A stretch of 20,000 bases of DNA, taken from the IMG/VR virus record IMGVR_UViG_3300027969_000078; one strand, 5' to 3'. The position numbers were made by a program, and so were the translations under genes. Shown here piece by piece: positions 3,000-9,323 of this stretch. The DNA is from an uncultured virus (IMG/VR IMGVR_UViG_3300027969_000078) (taxonomy: Duplodnaviria; Heunggongvirae; Uroviricota; Caudoviricetes). A model generated the notes under the pieces. It searched no databases. It was not told the DNA's origin and saw only the letters and a list, made by a program, of their open reading frames with translations. Within the stretch, counting starts at the first letter, position 1, and each line of letters starts with the position of its first letter.

Positions 3000-3410
3000 C
3001 TGTATTACAAAAAATTCAAAAATCTATATATATAGGAGCGGAGTCTTAAACGGAGCGACTCCGTATATATTTATCTATATACTATAGAAGACCCGTTCAA
3101 ACGGGTCTTTTCCGAGTGGGTTGGGAAAGTATTTTCCCGAACCCCTTTATCTTAAGCGTACGATGTGACGTACGTCACACATCCCGAGGAGTACTTAAAG
3201 TACTCTGAAGGGGGGCAATTAAATATAACAGAAAATTATTTAGGGAGTATATATATATAAAAGAACCTCGATTTAATAAATCTCGGGTCAAACATTGCGC
3301 TTGCGCGCATATTCTGCGCTCTTTATTGTTGTGGGAATTGTGAATGAGTGACTATCCCCCGAAGGGGTTTAGATAATAGATATTCCCCCCGATAAAATAA
3401 AATATAATCG
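3000..3410. other. AT-rich non-coding region with clustered inverted repeats (candidate genome end, pac site or origin)
   Basis: Inverted repeats at 3039-3063, 3088-3109, 3118-3144 (imperfect), 3164-3179 and 3189-3205, plus TATA runs. Lies between the divergent late and early arms. Confidence 0.55.
3164..3179. promoter_or_regulatory. Perfect CRP/GlxR-type box TGTGA-N6-TCACA
   Basis: Sequence TGTGACGTACGTCACA, intergenic. Confidence 0.55.
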
Positions 3411-3535
3411 GTGAAGGTGTCGGCATCTCTCGCGCCCGACTTATACCACGCCCGCGCCTATGCTCCCCGCCATATTCCCCCGCGTGTCGGCTCACGCTCC
3501 CGCGCTCACGCTCAACCCGCCCGCGCTCCCGCCCG

Positions 3536-3549
3536 TTCGGTTAACCGAA
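3536..3549. repeat. Palindrome A copy 1 (TTCGGTTAACCGAA)
   Basis: Exact copy, upstream of the promoter of gene 3678. Confidence 0.9.
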
Positions 3550-3617
3550 TGACCCCCGACCCGCCAAAGAAATCACCCCCCCGACCCTTGCGCTTGGTGT
3601 TGCGATATTGGAAATCG

Positions 3618-3626
3618 TGGTATCGT
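3618..3626 (+). promoter_or_regulatory. Possible extended -10 promoter (TGgTATCGT) for gene 3678
   Basis: TGn-TAnnnT about 50 nt before the ATG; no well-spaced -35 (TTGCGA is 15 nt away). Confidence 0.4.
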
Positions 3627-3677
3627 TCTCTTATGCCAAACGGCATTCAGTACCCAACCAGAAATGAGAAATAAAAA

Positions 3678-4274
3678 ATGGCTACAAAGTCAAAGGCTCC
3701 AAAGTCAGTAGAAATCAAGGCTCCAAAGATTGCAACCGCTTGGAATGGTGTCTGCACCACTTCTGCAAAGTCGGAGAATGAAATCGTGAAAGCGATTGAG
3801 AACCTTAGCGCGACCCTAATTCTTGAGTCCCGCCTATCAGTTGCCGACCAGAAGAAGTTCATCAAAGGCTTGGAAGATAGTGGCAAGGTGTCCTCATTCG
3901 TGAAGTCATCTCACGCGCCAGCGCTCCCAACTTGGTCAAAGTTGCGCGCCCTACACGCGGACTTCCGCGCCCTACCTATCGCCAAGCAACTCTCAACCGC
4001 CGCCGCATCATACGACCTTCTTGGCGCTGGCAAGGGTGAGCAATATAAGACCCTAGAAATCTTGACCAAAGAAATCGCGGGTGTTCGCAAGAATAAGGCT
4101 GAGAAGGCTAAAGCGGGAGCATCAACACCCGCAAAGGCTAAGGCTCCAAAGGATACGCTGAAAGACATCCTCGCATTCTTCACCGCGTTGGATACTTCTA
4201 CCCTAGAAGATGCTCAACTGGACACCCTAGTAGAAATCCAGTTCATCTTAGAAGGTAAGATGGCAAGCGCATAA
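3678..4274 (+). CDS. Hypothetical K/A-rich protein, first gene of the early arm (198 aa)
   Basis: Long ORF with its own putative promoter and a strong terminator; repeated KAPK motifs; no family recognised. Confidence 0.85.
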   Translation: MATKSKAPKSVEIKAPKIATAWNGVCTTSAKSENEIVKAIENLSATLILESRLSVADQKKFIKGLEDSGKVSSFVKSSHAPALPTWSKLRALHADFRALPIAKQLSTAAASYDLLGAGKGEQYKTLEILTKEIAGVRKNKAEKAKAGASTPAKAKAPKDTLKDILAFFTALDTSTLEDAQLDTLVEIQFILEGKMASA

Positions 4275-4440: not shown

Positions 4441-4454
4441 TTCGGTTAACCGAA
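4441..4454. repeat. Palindrome A copy 2
   Basis: Exact copy, ends 6 bp upstream of the -35 at 4461. Confidence 0.9.
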
Positions 4455-4460
4455 TGGTAC

Positions 4461-4489
4461 TTGACGGATATTTAGCCATAGGGTAGACT
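4461..4489 (+). promoter_or_regulatory. SigA/sigma70-type promoter
   Basis: TTGACG-N17-TAGACT. Confidence 0.8.
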
Positions 4490-4535
4490 AGTGTCTATCA
4501 GCGAGGCTCCTGCCTAGTTGGTATCCAACCTAGTG

Positions 4536-4549
4536 TTCGGTTAACCGAA
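4536..4549. repeat. Palindrome A copy 3
   Basis: Exact copy, extends to the 18-bp TGTTCGGTTAACCGAACA; 17 nt upstream of ATG 4567. Confidence 0.9.
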
Positions 4550-4566
4550 CAGAGAGTGAGAACGAA

Positions 4567-4701
4567 ATGTTAGACCTGAATGAGTTAAGCGCTCACTTAG
4601 AAGTACAGACCAACATTCTAAATGAGAAGCGAGCAGAGCAAGAAAAGTACGAGCAAGGCGTTCGTGCTATCAAAGAAGCAACCAACAAGGAGATGATGTA
4701 A
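4567..4701 (+). CDS. Hypothetical microprotein (44 aa)
   Basis: MLDLNELSAHLEVQTNILNEKRAEQEKYEQGVRAIKEATNKEMM; TAATG-coupled to the next ORF. Confidence 0.75.
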   Translation: MLDLNELSAHLEVQTNILNEKRAEQEKYEQGVRAIKEATNKEMM

Positions 4702-4877
4702 TGAGCCAGCCAACAGGAGTAGCACTACGCGTTACCAACAAAGACGGCAAGGAGTCGTTTCCATCATATGAGGCTTGGGGTTGGGATAAGGTCAATGATA
4801 TTATTCAGGGAACCTTAGCCATTGACCACGTTGCAAAGGTTGAAATCGTAGACGTTAATATCAGAGAGGGTATGTAA
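4701..4877 (+). CDS. Hypothetical microprotein (58 aa)
   Basis: MSQPTGVALRVTNKDGKESFPSYEAWGWDKVNDIIQGTLAIDHVAKVEIVDVNIREGM; AAGGAG RBS; TAATG overlaps on both sides. Confidence 0.8.
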   Translation: MSQPTGVALRVTNKDGKESFPSYEAWGWDKVNDIIQGTLAIDHVAKVEIVDVNIREGM

Positions 4878-4990
4878 TGATTACTTGGAGCATTGACGAC
4901 CCGAATGGTCTTAATGATGATGAACTAGAAGTATTTAGAGCAGATATACAAGATGCTATTGACGGCGTTGTAGAAGATTGGGGCATTTGA
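4877..4990 (+). CDS. Acidic microprotein (37 aa)
   Basis: MITWSIDDPNGLNDDELEVFRADIQDAIDGVVEDWGI; GAGG RBS; TAATG coupling. Confidence 0.75.
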   Translation: MITWSIDDPNGLNDDELEVFRADIQDAIDGVVEDWGI

Positions 4991-5015
4991 CCAAAACTTA
5001 TGCAGGTGGTAGACT
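4987..5015 (+). promoter_or_regulatory. SigA/sigma70-type promoter
   Basis: TTGACC-N17-TAGACT with a TGn extension; shares the TAGACTAGT context with the 4461 promoter. Confidence 0.8.
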
Positions 5016-5021
5016 AGTCTT

Positions 5022-5126
5022 ATTGGCGAGCCTACCTTTCGTTGGGTAGGGTAGGCTGGTGGCTCACGATAGGCATTTACGCAGGTGCGAGTCCTGCGGT
5101 GAGCGCGTGATAACAAATCGTTATCA
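5022..5126 (+). ncRNA. Putative structured RNA or leader containing a tRNA-like acceptor + T-arm domain
   Basis: Hairpin AGCCTACC/GGTAGGCT (5029-5057); GCTCAC/GTGAGC stem stacked on CGCAGG-TGCGAGT-CCTGCG (5062-5104); hairpin TGATAAC/GTTATCA (5108-5126). Confidence 0.55.
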
Positions 5127-5130
5127 TCTG

Positions 5131-5144
5131 TTCGGTTAACCGAA
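5131..5144. repeat. Palindrome A copy 4
   Basis: Exact copy, 20 nt upstream of ATG 5165. Confidence 0.9.
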
Positions 5145-5164
5145 TGGTGTTCTAAGGATATGAT

Positions 5165-5317
5165 ATGGAACTGATTAACTTAGATGTAAGCGAGTACGGC
5201 ATTAGCCTTACTTCTTACTTCGGTGATGTGTACGTTTTCTGGCGCACACTTCTTCTCGTTGCTGGTGTAGTTGTGGTACTTCGTATCGCTAAGTCTATCC
5301 GTAAGAAGGTACGCTAA
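5165..5317 (+). CDS. Small single-pass membrane protein (50 aa)
   Basis: MELINLDVSEYGISLTSYFGDVYVFWRTLLLVAGVVVVLRIAKSIRKKVR; AAGGA RBS; TAATG coupling. Confidence 0.8.
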   Translation: MELINLDVSEYGISLTSYFGDVYVFWRTLLLVAGVVVVLRIAKSIRKKVR

Positions 5318-5511
5318 TGACCTACAAATCAGCAGACCAACTGGTGGCGGAAATTTCCGACACAAACAATTCGTGGGAAGCACGCCTTGACTACGACCTC
5401 GTACAAGAAATCTTGGGGCGTTCTATGAGCCTCAAGGAATGGGGACAACTCGTTGATACCCTTGACGATATCGTATTTGAGACAGTTATGAGTTTCTCCA
5501 ATGACCAGTAA
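5317..5511 (+). CDS. Hypothetical acidic protein (64 aa)
   Basis: Coupled ORF with AAGGT RBS. Confidence 0.75.
   Translation: MTYKSADQLVAEISDTNNSWEARLDYDLVQEILGRSMSLKEWGQLVDTLDDIVFETVMSFSNDQ
5357..5367 (+). repeat. Motif B copy 3 (inside a CDS)
   Basis: TTTCCGACACAAACAA, the same 16-mer as at 4391-4406. Confidence 0.75.
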
Positions 5512-5716
5512 TGTATCTATAGAGTTGACCCCTGCCGAGGTAAATATCGTCAGGCAATCTCTACGCGCTGAACACGATAGAATGGTGAAGCAGGGCTATG
5601 CCCAACTTGCCAAACTTGCAATAGAAACATCTAGTAAAATCGCTGATGCCGTAATTGACAATAGTTTAGGCAAGGTGTATGATAGTACCACTCAACCACA
5701 AAGCGTGGTTGGTTAA
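5501..5716 (+). CDS. Hypothetical protein (71 aa)
   Basis: Overlaps the end of the upstream gene and stops just before palindrome copy 5. Confidence 0.7.
   Translation: MTSNVSIELTPAEVNIVRQSLRAEHDRMVKQGYAQLAKLAIETSSKIADAVIDNSLGKVYDSTTQPQSVVG
5655..5683 (+). promoter_or_regulatory. Near-consensus SigA/sigma70 promoter for the amidoligase operon
   Basis: TTGACA-N17-TATGAT. Confidence 0.8.
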
Positions 5717-5719
5717 GCG

Positions 5720-5733
5720 TTCGGTTAAACGAA
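5720..5733. repeat. Palindrome A copy 5 (TTCGGTTAAACGAA, 1 mismatch)
   Basis: Intergenic, 16 nt before ATG 5750. Confidence 0.85.
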
Positions 5734-5749: not shown

Positions 5750-6964
5750 ATGGAAGAAAACAAAGAAGGTATAGAATGCGCGGTCTGCGATACCGCCATT
5801 GCACCTGATGATGTATTCCAAGTACAGCCAGACCAGCAAGTATGCTCTGACTGCGTGCGAATATGTGAAAGGTGTGATGAGTCAGGCACATCTGACGATA
5901 ACTACTGCGAAGTAGATGGCAACGCTATGTGGTGCGAGAACTGTATCAGTCGCGCTGCGAGTTTCTGCGCCTACTGTGAGGAGTACAACTCAGAAGGCAC
6001 TAACTACATACAAGATAGAGGCGATTACTGGTGCAGTTATTGCACACAGGACAACGCTTCTTATTGCGACGATTGCGATAATTACTATCAAGATGGTTGC
6101 GAAGACTGTTATCGTGAGCCAGAGATGATTCACGATTACAGTTACAGACCTGACCTTATATTCCACACCACCAACAAGGATGAACGCTTGTACTTTGGTA
6201 TGGAGATAGAGTTGGAATGTCGTAATGGTCGGACTGACCCTTCCGATTACGCTGGCAATATGCTAGAACGATATGACCTAGCATATCTCAAGAGTGATGG
6301 CTCTCTCAATGATGGCTTCGAGATAGTTACCCACCCTATGACTCACGACTTCTTCAAGAACGAGGCGACCGAGTTCTGGGAAACCATTGCAACACTACGA
6401 GATAGATATAGAGTTATGACTTGGGGTGCTAGTACAACTGGTATCCACATTCATATCTCACGTACTGGGTTTAATGGTGGTGCTCATATGCACCGCTTCC
6501 TGAACCTTGTGTATAGCAATGAGGGATTGTATTCCACTATTGCTGGTCGTGAGTCTACTCGTTGGGCTAAGTTCGATGATGTCTTGGAGAACACCCTTAC
6601 CCGAGATGAGTTCGGTAACCGCGAATGGAAAACCCATCGTGGTTTCAGCAAGAAGATAACTGATGGTCGCAATACCGATAGGTATTCTGCCGTCAATACC
6701 CAAAATCGTGATACACTTGAGTTACGTATCTTCAAGAGTACCACCAAGCCAGAAAGAATTAAGGCTTATATGGACTTAGCGCACGCCAGCGTTGAGTACA
6801 CTAGAGGGCTTACCCTACAACAAGTTAAAGATGGAGCGCTATCCGATAGTGCTTTCATTGCATATGTAAGAGAGAATGGTTCTCTCTACGAACATCTAGT
6901 CGGACTCCTTGACCAACTAGGTATCAGTAGCGTTCGGTTAGCCGAACAGAATGTGAGTGAATAG
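5750..6964 (+). CDS. Putative amidoligase (COOH-NH2 ligase, Amidoligase_2-like) with a Cys-rich N-terminal region
   Basis: Motifs FGMEIELE, KSDGSL..GFEIVTHP, TGIHIHIS, RYSAVN, TLELRIF; about 8 CxxC pairs in the first 120 aa. Confidence 0.85.
   Translation: MEENKEGIECAVCDTAIAPDDVFQVQPDQQVCSDCVRICERCDESGTSDDNYCEVDGNAMWCENCISRAASFCAYCEEYNSEGTNYIQDRGDYWCSYCTQDNASYCDDCDNYYQDGCEDCYREPEMIHDYSYRPDLIFHTTNKDERLYFGMEIELECRNGRTDPSDYAGNMLERYDLAYLKSDGSLNDGFEIVTHPMTHDFFKNEATEFWETIATLRDRYRVMTWGASTTGIHIHISRTGFNGGAHMHRFLNLVYSNEGLYSTIAGRESTRWAKFDDVLENTLTRDEFGNREWKTHRGFSKKITDGRNTDRYSAVNTQNRDTLELRIFKSTTKPERIKAYMDLAHASVEYTRGLTLQQVKDGALSDSAFIAYVRENGSLYEHLVGLLDQLGISSVRLAEQNVSE
6933..6946. repeat. Palindrome A copy 6 (TTCGGTTAGCCGAA, 1 mismatch)
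   Basis: In the amidoligase 3' end, 21 nt before ATG 6968. Confidence 0.85.
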
Positions 6965-6967
6965 CCT

Positions 6968-7798
6968 ATGTGTCTCCTCGTCGTTGCGTCGCCTAATAGC
7001 ACGCCAAAGAAGAAGGACTTAGAGTGTGCTTCTTGTAACAATCCGCACGGCTTCGGCTTTGCTGTAATAACCCCGAATGGTATCGTTACTGGTAAGGGTA
7101 TGTCTGCTAAGAAAGTAATCAAGCAGTTCCTAGAAGTACGCAAGGAATATCCAAACAGTTATGCTATGTTCCACGCACGCTATGCAACGCACGGCGTGAA
7201 GAATGATGATAACTGCCACCCGTTCAAGGTTCCTAGTAACCCAGATACATATCTGGCACACAATGGTATCCTTGACATCGACATCAAGGCTGGCGACCGC
7301 CGTAGCGATACGCGTATCTTTGCAGAAGATACCTTACCTGCTATGGGTGGTGTGTCTGCACTAGATGATGAGCACGTATGGAATATGGTTAGCAAGTGGT
7401 CGCTAGGTAGTAAGATAGTTATCTTCACCCTAGACCCTGCTGCTAAGGATAACTGCTACATCATCAACGAGTCTGCTGGTCATTGGGATAACGAGGGAAT
7501 GTGGTGGTCTAACACTACCTACTTGCCCTCCACTTGGTCATCATCATATCTTACCAAGCCCAGTAATAGCGGACACCCTACGGCAGTTGAGATAGAGAGC
7601 GAGTGCGGTGCGTGTGGTGCTGTACCATTTGAAGATGGCAACCCGTACTACTGCGAGATGTGCTATGCTTGCTTTGACTGCACTGGTGTGTACGGGGATA
7701 ACTGCCTATGCTATACACCAGAACGTACCAAGTCTGCATACACACTAGGAGAAAGGGATTGGTGGAATAATGGAAAATCCTACAGTTGGAATCGGTAG
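6968..7798 (+). CDS. Class II (Ntn) glutamine amidotransferase with a Cys-rich C-terminus
   Basis: N-terminal Met-Cys, NPHGFG, HARYATHG, NCHPF, AHNG, SDT. Confidence 0.9.
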   Translation: MCLLVVASPNSTPKKKDLECASCNNPHGFGFAVITPNGIVTGKGMSAKKVIKQFLEVRKEYPNSYAMFHARYATHGVKNDDNCHPFKVPSNPDTYLAHNGILDIDIKAGDRRSDTRIFAEDTLPAMGGVSALDDEHVWNMVSKWSLGSKIVIFTLDPAAKDNCYIINESAGHWDNEGMWWSNTTYLPSTWSSSYLTKPSNSGHPTAVEIESECGACGAVPFEDGNPYYCEMCYACFDCTGVYGDNCLCYTPERTKSAYTLGERDWWNNGKSYSWNR

Positions 7799-7801
7799 TC
7801 G

Positions 7802-7815
7802 TTCGGTTAACCGAA
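7802..7815. repeat. Palindrome A copy 7
   Basis: Exact copy, 3 nt after the GATase stop; its last A is the A of ATG 7815. Confidence 0.9.
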
Positions 7816-8933: not shown

Positions 8934-9323
8934 ATGCTAAAGAAAGTTGCACTACTGCTAGTTATACTGATTGCAGTATCATTCTTTCCTCATTCGGTTA
9001 ACCGAACAGAGCCAAAGATAACAGCAAGGGAGTGGCAAGTAGCAGACAGCAAGGCTTATGCTCAAGATGTAGTACTTGCTTGGGCAGATAATCAGTACCT
9101 ATGCTTGGAGAAACTGTGGACTAAGGAGTCCAACTGGAGACCCGAGGCGTACAACAAGGTAAAGGTAATGGGTAAGAACGCTGGCGGTATACCACAGATA
9201 TTGGGAATGTCGACACAAACACCTGCACCAAAGCAGATAGACAGGGGATTTGCCTACATTATGCATAGATATGGCACACCCTGCATGGCTTGGAAGCATC
9301 ACAAAAGGAGAGGGTGGTACTAG
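8934..9323 (+). CDS. Secreted or membrane-anchored lytic transglycosylase (SLT/lysozyme-like, actinobacterial type)
   Basis: Signal-like N-terminus; catalytic KESNW, AGGIPQ, QIDRGFAYI..RYGTPC.AW, C-terminal GWY. Confidence 0.85.
   Translation: MLKKVALLLVILIAVSFFPHSVNRTEPKITAREWQVADSKAYAQDVVLAWADNQYLCLEKLWTKESNWRPEAYNKVKVMGKNAGGIPQILGMSTQTPAPKQIDRGFAYIMHRYGTPCMAWKHHKRRGWY
8993..9006. repeat. Palindrome A copy 8 (inside the SLT gene)
   Basis: Exact copy. Confidence 0.9.
9211..9220 (+). repeat. Motif B copy 5 (CGACACAAAC, inside the SLT gene)
   Basis: 10 of 11 positions match; same orientation as the other copies. Confidence 0.6.

Follow-up and report, generated by a model that had tools for sequence, protein, structure and literature searches.

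A covariation-supported tRNA top-half mimic in the leader of a small-gene block of freshwater actinophage-like genomes

Examples of RNAs that have the shape of tRNA but do not decode have been described in plant organelles, among the long non-coding RNAs of eukaryotes, in RNA viruses and in tmRNA. The shape of the top half of tRNA is what RNase P, RNase Z and the CCA-adding enzyme recognise, and synthetic minihelices built from an acceptor stem and a T-arm are minimal substrates of RNase P and the CCA-adding enzyme. In signals of the MALAT1 mascRNA type, which are eukaryotic and cloverleaf-like, a tRNA-like fold within a longer transcript marks the sites of RNase P and RNase Z cutting. The t-elements of plant mitochondria were found by the T-arm motif GGTTCRANYCC and, in the part of Forner et al. 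(2007, PMC1920247) drawn on here, are proposed, and partly shown, to direct the RNase P and RNase Z cuts that make mRNA 5′ and 3′ ends. Mycobacteriophage DS6A encodes little more than the tRNA-like domain of a tmRNA, and a similar molecule inhibits tmRNA, perhaps by titrating SmpB, according to the part of Hudson et al. (2014, PMC4131195) that deals with it. The DS6A element was located here with the Rfam model RF00023 at 43.2 bits, below the cut-off of 47 bits, and contained a G-T third pair, an unpaired 14-nt D-analogue loop with TGGTG after the acceptor strand, a P2-like helix and a canonical T-arm.

The element described here occupies positions 5062–5105 (44 nt) of a phage sequence and is best explained as a + strand RNA element in the leader of a block of small phage genes, transcribed from a promoter at 4987–5015. 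Like the t-elements, as far as they are characterised in the source cited above, it would be a non-decoding tRNA-like fold inside an mRNA precursor, upstream of a coding region, and two of its four types (B and C) contain GGTTCRANYCC exactly. The t-elements are organellar, whereas the present element belongs to a bacterial virus, so that the relation would be one of analogy rather than homology, and cutting is a proposal in the present case. The phage element also has no D-stem or anticodon arm at all, carries G at the second position of the loop in the sequence studied, and forms a covarying, conserved family. The tRNA-like domain of DS6A is likewise actinophage-borne and resembles it in architecture, with an acceptor helix, a D-analogue loop that is unpaired and a T-arm, but no anticodon arm; TGGTG directly after the acceptor strand is common to DS6A and types B and C, whereas the type A linker is without it. 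Unlike tmRNA, the phage element lacks the G3-U70 pair that confers alanine identity, which is replaced by T-A or, in types C and D, by C-G, and it has neither a P2 helix nor an ACCA, the acceptor 3′ strand continuing with GCG or ACT. The Rfam tmRNA models gave no match to it at E-values up to 10. Membership of the tmRNA family is not supported; a similar mode of action is possible.

The 12-bp coaxial stack and the cap formed by a 7-nt T-loop are shared with the synthetic minihelices, from which the natural element differs by a bulged linker of 12–18 nt in the 5′ strand, by flanking hairpins and by the lack of an RCCA end. The MALAT1 mascRNA differs in being eukaryotic and in having a full cloverleaf-like fold; cuts analogous to those at MALAT1 would also free an upstream RNA here, a piece carrying the hairpin HP1. 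No description of the leader was found in literature listings and abstracts, and it had no match in Rfam 15. On comparative sequence evidence it represents a new, covariation-supported RNA family of the tRNA-mimic class, with a putative function.

Genome context and layout of the leader

The window, which is the whole stretch of 20,000 nt that was analysed, forms part of the 38.7 kb genome record of a virus that is 98% complete. Domain annotation placed the large terminase and the portal on one side of the genome. A block of small genes on the + strand includes WhiB and an amidoligase/amidotransferase pair, and a block on the − strand contains a sigma factor, primase, DnaB-like helicase and exonuclease. 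Downstream of the leader and in the same direction, adjacent genes (5750–7798) have as products a putative amidoligase (PF12224) and a protein resembling class-II glutamine amidotransferases. Among cultured phages, the terminase had its nearest relatives in Streptomyces, Mycobacterium and Gordonia phages at ~45% identity, and the public runs containing DNA of this phage were mostly labelled freshwater. A search for tyrosine integrases found none in the 98%-complete genome, and no tRNA gene was found in the 38.7 kb. Comparison of 4600–5600 with named phage records by blastn gave a single partial match only. We infer that the phage is a lytic actinophage of freshwater hosts and that the + strand small-gene block is early.

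Between the terminase and the small-gene block the window contains a non-coding stretch in two parts (3000–3680). The first part is A/T-rich, with TATATATA runs and several hairpins, and the second is very G+C-rich, with CGCGCTCACGCTC-like repeats (3400–3560), and ends at a copy of the palindrome described below. Possible roles for this stretch are as a site of packaging or of replication, or as an end of the genome.

The promoter on the + strand at 4987–5015 is of the sigma-70/SigA type, with the −35 hexamer TTGACC (4987–4992), a 17-nt spacer, TGG as an extended −10 (5007–5009) and the −10 hexamer TAGACT (5010–5015), and a transcription start is predicted near 5021–5023. An ORF of 37 aa (4877–4990) ends inside this promoter-like site. 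TTGAC, the spacing and TGnTAnnnT were conserved upstream of the leaders of all aligned relatives. The interval 5016–5164 is non-coding and constitutes a 149-nt untranslated leader, the next ATG being at 5165. An initial annotation of the sequence had reported this promoter, as TTGACC-N17-TAGACT, and a non-coding gap of about 150 nt after it, both of which were borne out; the stems, loop, linker and flanking hairpins that it placed in the gap match the sequence at every coordinate.

Read on the + strand, the leader opens with the initial transcribed stretch AGTCTTATTGGCG (5016–5028), of a type conserved among relatives, and continues with the hairpin HP1 (5029–5057), which has a covarying stem of ~10–12 bp, contains a conserved TTGGG in its loop, and folded independently in each relative. 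A spacer of GGTG (5058–5061), invariant in types A and B, separates HP1 from the acceptor-like helix. The 5′ strand of this helix, GCTCAC (5062–5067), pairs with 5099–5104 and is followed by a 12-nt linker, GATAGGCATTTA (5068–5079), which replaces the D-arm, anticodon arm and variable region of a tRNA and in which AGG is invariant. The T-stem-like strands CGCAGG (5080–5085) and CCTGCG (5093–5098) pair with one another and close the 7-nt T-loop-like loop TGCGAGT (5086–5092), of which every version retains T1, C3, R4 and A5 as well as the closing G-C. The acceptor-like 3′ strand GTGAGC ends with the discriminator-like G5105 (5099–5105), after which the next bases are CG. The 7-bp hairpin HP3 (5108–5126; TGATAAC/GTTATCA, loop AAATC) begins 2 nt after the discriminator-like base, and HP4 (5128–5147) is formed by the palindrome TTCGGTTAACCGAA (5131–5144) extended by G-U-tolerant pairs. 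A kissing contact between the loops of HP1 and HP3, both of which are A/U-rich, was weighed by eye only. A Shine-Dalgarno-like AAGGA (5154–5158) and the first post-leader gene, which starts at the ATG at 5165 and encodes 50 aa without a family match, complete the arrangement on the + strand (5154–5317).

A second promoter (TTGACG-N17-TAGACT) lies at 4461–4489; it shares the GGTAGACTAGT context and its transcript start is similar to that of the 4987–5015 promoter. One copy of the palindrome is located just upstream of it and another in its leader (4490–4566). The tRNA-like element is absent from this leader (4490–4566).

Conservation and covariation of the fold

Taken alone, the sequence of the window gave modest evidence for the fold. 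Folding of the 143-nt leader gave z = −3.65, with 1 of 200 shuffles as good, and the isolated 47-nt piece gave z = −1.81, with 10 of 200 as good. The fold proposed in the initial annotation had an energy of −16.0 kcal/mol, 0.8 kcal/mol higher than the minimum free energy of −16.8 kcal/mol. When the 38.7-kb genome was scanned generically for the architecture, a single instance was returned, and 7 of 200 shuffled genomes contained one or more.

Relatives of the leader were collected in two ways. With a 19-mer taken from the inner hairpin, matches were obtained in 28 viral contigs, which by eye comprised 23 homologous leaders and 5 unrelated sequences, and a 16-mer from the 5′ side matched 85 contigs, roughly half of them leaders. 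Together with the window these sets gave 39 distinct leader versions, in which the 5′ acceptor strand and the first linker bases are partly fixed by the DNA search words. Because searches with DNA words bias what can vary, a second collection was anchored on the terminase. Matches to the terminase numbered at least 599 stretches in IMG/VR, of which 80 loci were retained and searched with a covariance model made from 38 sequences, which matched 30 of the 80. Upstream of the terminase, 30 loci had more than 2643 nt of sequence; the covariance model matched 26 of these, and a 27th element (L155) was found with the filters off and by a motif scan, so that the element was present in 27 of 30. Searches with the filters off and a generic fold scan did not find it in L136, L138 or L140; the region after the homologous upstream gene is coding in L136.

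Near-complete genomes contained exactly one copy of the element each (5 of 5). The leader was conserved across a large group of ~39-kb freshwater actinophage-like genomes, and the element was kept across phages whose flanks had diverged. Related contigs in the metatranscriptomic libraries X22 and X23 reach or cover the core, and in X22 the core is where the depth, added up for several related phages, reaches its peak, these being assembled contigs, which cannot show transcription, ends or processing. A 36-nt degenerate pattern matched, among 185,579 bacterial and archaeal species genomes, only L124 and L125 in one metagenome bin labelled Candidatus Saccharimonadales. Both carry the promoter, leader and small first gene as in the phages; they are probably phage contigs binned with Candidatus Saccharimonadales, and the bin label was not taken as a host assignment. 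In L024 and L043 another conserved stretch, of ~100 nt, takes the place of HP3 and the palindrome after the tRNA-like element, and the element is therefore modular relative to the downstream sequence.

Covariation across relatives, which the initial annotation had named as a check on the fold, was found in the 38 distinct homologues: for the 12 pairs of the bulged helix, every one of the 456 cells was a standard pair, and 4 of the 12 pairs showed compensatory changes (25 cells), a level reached by 0 of 500 shuffles, while slid controls were 33–49% paired. Both helices were also 100% paired in the terminase-anchored set, for which no DNA word had been used (29 distinct rows), and there 5 of 12 pairs were compensatory. 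RNAalifold was applied to 35 leaders, leaving out L024, L043, L049 and L076 of the 39 versions, whose 3′ part was different or cut off. Both helices, HP3 and HP4 were recovered, with compensatory changes in 14 of the 26 predicted pairs and in 5 of the 6 pairs predicted for HP3. For HP1, 10 of 12 pairs were compensatory in the alignment fitted to the covariance model (A3). A census of 51 distinct versions contained 12 T-stem versions and 6 acceptor versions; the scan behind this census demands pairing, and its result is a catalogue of variety rather than a pairing test. An acceptor C-G pair is replaced by T-A in 4 distinct versions, and other acceptor sequences are found in types C and D. G-U pairs were present only in the + strand reading, which fixes the strand of the element. 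On this comparative evidence, which is strong, the fold is judged to be real and under selection.

Two further pairings were considered and rejected. RNAalifold extended the acceptor helix by three pairs with one bulged G, an extension that is not kept in type C. The HP1 loop resembles the left half of the palindrome in the window, and pairing of this loop with the right half was therefore considered; the loop stays TTGGG where the palindromes differ, and no covariation was seen.

These comparisons also bear on whether the element might be the remnant of a decaying tRNA gene, or a phage attachment site in which a host tRNA is copied at its 3′ end, and have no RNA function. Integrases that target tRNA genes copy the T-arm and the 3′ strand of the acceptor, and relatives of the phage carry real tRNA genes, both of which would be in keeping with such an origin. 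However, covariation affects the two strands of each helix, the acceptor is represented by its 5′ strand too, and the element is conserved across phages with diverged flanks; moreover the search of the 98%-complete genome, which covered tyrosine but not serine integrases, found no tyrosine integrase. An origin of this kind, without RNA function, is very improbable.

tRNA likeness and types of the element

The two helices of the element form a coaxial stack of 6 + 6 bp (12 bp), with no base between the two 3′ strands, and are followed by a discriminator-like base. The D-stem and anticodon arm are absent and, as the initial annotation had noted, no CCA is encoded. The loops of the 51 distinct versions were TGCGAGT in 38, TGCAAGT in 3, TGCAATT in 2, TTCGATT in 5 and TTCAATT in 3. 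The definition of the T-loop, as set out in the portion of the source used here (PMC4810234), comprises a reverse-Hoogsteen pair formed by residues 1 and 5, pairing of residue 3 with G19, and a gap between residues 4 and 5 that accommodates G18. U1, C3, R4, A5 and the closing G-C were kept in all 51 versions. Position 2 of the loop is G in 43 versions, including that of the window, and T in 8, while tRNA has U (pseudouridine 55). Every linker in the census contained GG, with linker lengths of 12–18 nt, and GA[T/A]AGG was present in the linker of 23 of 23 homologues found with an anchor outside the linker. The element is a mimic of the top half of tRNA, rather than a tRNA, and the GG of the linker presumably takes the part of the D-loop guanines in completing the elbow with the T-loop.

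Four types were distinguished. Type A, the dominant type and that of the window, combines TGCGAGT, or a loop very close to it, with a linker of 12 nt in the form GA[T/A]AGG... Type B (L177, L181, L205, L147, L213 and L216) has the same acceptor, a linker of 15–18 nt starting with TCTGGTGA, and the loop TTCGATT or TTCAATT. Type C (L154, L155, L250 and L308) has the acceptors GCCTAC/GTGGGC or GCCCGC/GCGGGT, the linker GCTGGTGCGTGGTT and the loops TTCGATT or TTCAATT, and type D (GenBank OX376640.1) has the acceptor GCCCCC/GGGGGC, a 15-nt linker and the loop TTCAAGA. Types B–D are rarer, were found only through the covariance model or by eye, and are more canonical than type A. A search for further copies of type C with a 14-mer matched at least 119 stretches, mostly by chance, and only L250 and L308 had the fold. 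In 8 versions, of types B and C, TTCGATT or TTCAATT lies within GGTTCGATTCC or GGTTCAATTCC, an exact match to GGTTCRANYCC, and the T-arm of the window, GGTGCGAGTCC, has one mismatch to this motif. The claim of the initial annotation, that the element mimics an acceptor stem and T-arm without an anticodon arm, is thus upheld by the covariation, the T-loop positions and the canonical TTCGATT and TTCAATT loops of relatives.

The acceptor changes between types (GCTCAC, GCCTAC, GCCCGC and GCCCCC) while the geometry is constant, which argues for recognition of shape rather than of sequence. Types A, B and C all have a hairpin 2 nt past the discriminator-like base. Within type A the linker, T-loop and acceptor are almost invariant and the T-stem drifts; for the acceptor and linker this near-invariance is best judged from the terminase-anchored and 19-mer sets. 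This pattern suggests a partner that reads sequence, beyond RNase P and RNase Z.

Rfam and ARAGORN, which had been proposed as checks along with the annotation, were both run and neither recognised the element. The number of genes that ARAGORN reported was 0 for the window, and in five relatives it made no call at the site of the element; the tRNA model RF00005 had no match in the genome at E-values up to 10. At gathering thresholds Rfam gave nothing, and at E-values up to 10 it gave only weak antisense matches to RF04354. The Y-RNA-like model presumably included in Rfam (bacterial YrlA) had no match, and none of the Pfam or PHROG matches in the window was annotated as Ro or Rsr. The RF04354 matches (Plastid-ycf2 5′UTR RNA) lay on the minus strand at 5062–5106 and in L212, L213, L250 and L308, covering every type; by our own reading, the consensus of RF04354 appears to be the antisense of a tRNA acceptor/T-arm top half. 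Just upstream of the terminase L205 contains three tRNA genes (3653–3991; anticodons Leu-TAG, Trp-CCA and Met-CAT), with an encoded CCA in 0 of 3. Since these tRNAs also lack it, the lack of an encoded CCA is, in this group, not an objection to maturation of the tRNA type.

Possible functions of the element

The initial annotation had offered three putative roles, as a processing signal, as an mRNA stabiliser and as a decoy. The reading preferred here, with a probability of roughly 0.4, is that the element is a signal like the t-elements, which would be cut by RNase P and an RNase Z-type enzyme to release a mini-RNA and an mRNA starting at HP3. Host enzymes that read the shape of tRNA would treat 5062–5105 as a pre-tRNA. 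RNase P would cut at 5061/5062, removing the triphosphate end together with HP1, and an RNase Z-type activity would cut after G5105, so that a mini-RNA of ~44 nt would be released. The new 5′ end of the mRNA would lie 2 nt before HP3, which could shield it against 5′-end-dependent decay; stem-loops close to the 5′ end are known to protect mRNA from such decay. The element would then be the counterpart, in function, of the plant mitochondrial t-elements in a bacterial virus. The absence of CCA after the acceptor is permissive for RNase Z, and a t-element model would fit both the free variation of the acceptor between types and the position of the hairpin that types A, B and C have 2 nt beyond the discriminator-like base.

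Several features count against processing. Bacterial RNase P would find neither the G at −1 ideal nor the stable hairpin whose end lies only 4 nt upstream. The loop of the window type has G rather than U at position 2, the linker, loop and acceptor of type A are near-invariant, and the conserved TTGGG of the HP1 loop is left unexplained; on the sequences compared, each of these would weigh against the model. Because the leader of the 4461–4489 promoter and 3 of 30 relatives are without the element, it is not a general requirement for expressing these genes.

The near-invariance of the type A linker, loop and acceptor would fit a specific protein partner and a decoy acting in trans. Whether cut out or left in the leader, the mini-RNA would titrate a host factor that reads the acceptor and T-arm half of tRNA-like molecules. 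SmpB, with trans-translation being blocked, is the most concrete candidate, and defence toxins that modify or cut the acceptor ends of tRNA are the others. DS6A has a tmRNA reduced to little more than the tRNA-like domain, a similar molecule inhibits tmRNA, perhaps by titrating SmpB (PMC4131195, in the part used here), and the linkers of types B and C carry TGGTG directly after the acceptor strand as in DS6A. TGGTG is, however, missing from type A, and a shared 5-mer could be chance; the G3-U70 pair, P2 helix and ACCA are all lacking, no tmRNA-family Rfam model matched at E-values up to 10, and the element sits in an mRNA leader rather than in a stand-alone gene. A decoy role is possible, if somewhat doubtful.

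Processing and titration could also be combined. The leader would then be a production line for an anti-host RNA, in which RNase P and RNase Z excise a 44-nt top-half tRNA that the CCA-adding enzyme might complete, and which would act as a decoy for SmpB, shutting down ribosome rescue, or for acceptor-end toxins; the HP1 piece, with its TTGGG, would be a second small RNA. This scheme is put forward tentatively, and we regard it as unlikely.

The palindrome of HP4 belongs to a family spread over the small-gene block. Copies of TTCGGTTAACCGAA, all within the + strand block, are located at 3536–3549, 4441–4454, 4536–4549, 5131–5144, 5720–5733, 6933–6946, 7802–7815 and 8993–9006. Six of these 8 copies are exact and two have one mismatch, against a chance expectation of ~0.05, and four copies lie 16–21 nt before start codons. 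Their G-U-tolerant extensions suggest that the palindromes are RNA hairpins. Each related phage contained 8–9 copies of its own palindrome variant in the same region (TCCGTTTAAACGGA in G002 and G004, GCCGTATAATACGGC in G003), a pattern that indicates concerted change and a phage-specific partner. The palindromes are reminiscent of the start-associated sequences of cluster K mycobacteriophages.

Since the phage-specific hairpin, present in the unit in 8 copies, could serve for pausing, for termination or as an operator, the unit might be regulated through its transcript, and the leader itself might act in cis. HP1, the bulged helix and HP3 would in that case bind a phage or host protein or RNA polymerase and control elongation, termination or translation, the tRNA-like fold being a scaffold inherited from a tRNA gene. 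The element lies 40–90 nt past a conserved promoter, the HP1 loop is conserved, and the leader of the 4987–5015 promoter is the only one that has the element. Structured RNAs that lie close to a promoter and modify RNA polymerase are known, an example being the put RNA of HK022. Nothing, however, ties a T-loop elbow to the binding of polymerase or a repressor, the canonical T-loops of relatives and the exact 12-bp stack would be left unexplained, and no candidate for the binding protein emerged among the Pfam and PHROG matches of the window. Regulation in cis is accordingly considered unlikely as the role of the element.

What is new in the present case is a natural, top-half-only tRNA that an abundant group of freshwater actinophages conserves in the leader of its presumed early genes and that is not in Rfam. 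The family provides a compact model for how small a portion of a tRNA would suffice in vivo for engagement by RNase P, RNase Z, the CCA-adding enzyme or SmpB. It also offers a natural experiment, in which type A, with G2 in the T-loop and a co-changed linker, can be set against the rarer types that keep the canonical loop. For the phages, the element may represent a new route to setting the 5′ ends of mRNA or to disarming tRNA-directed functions of the host.
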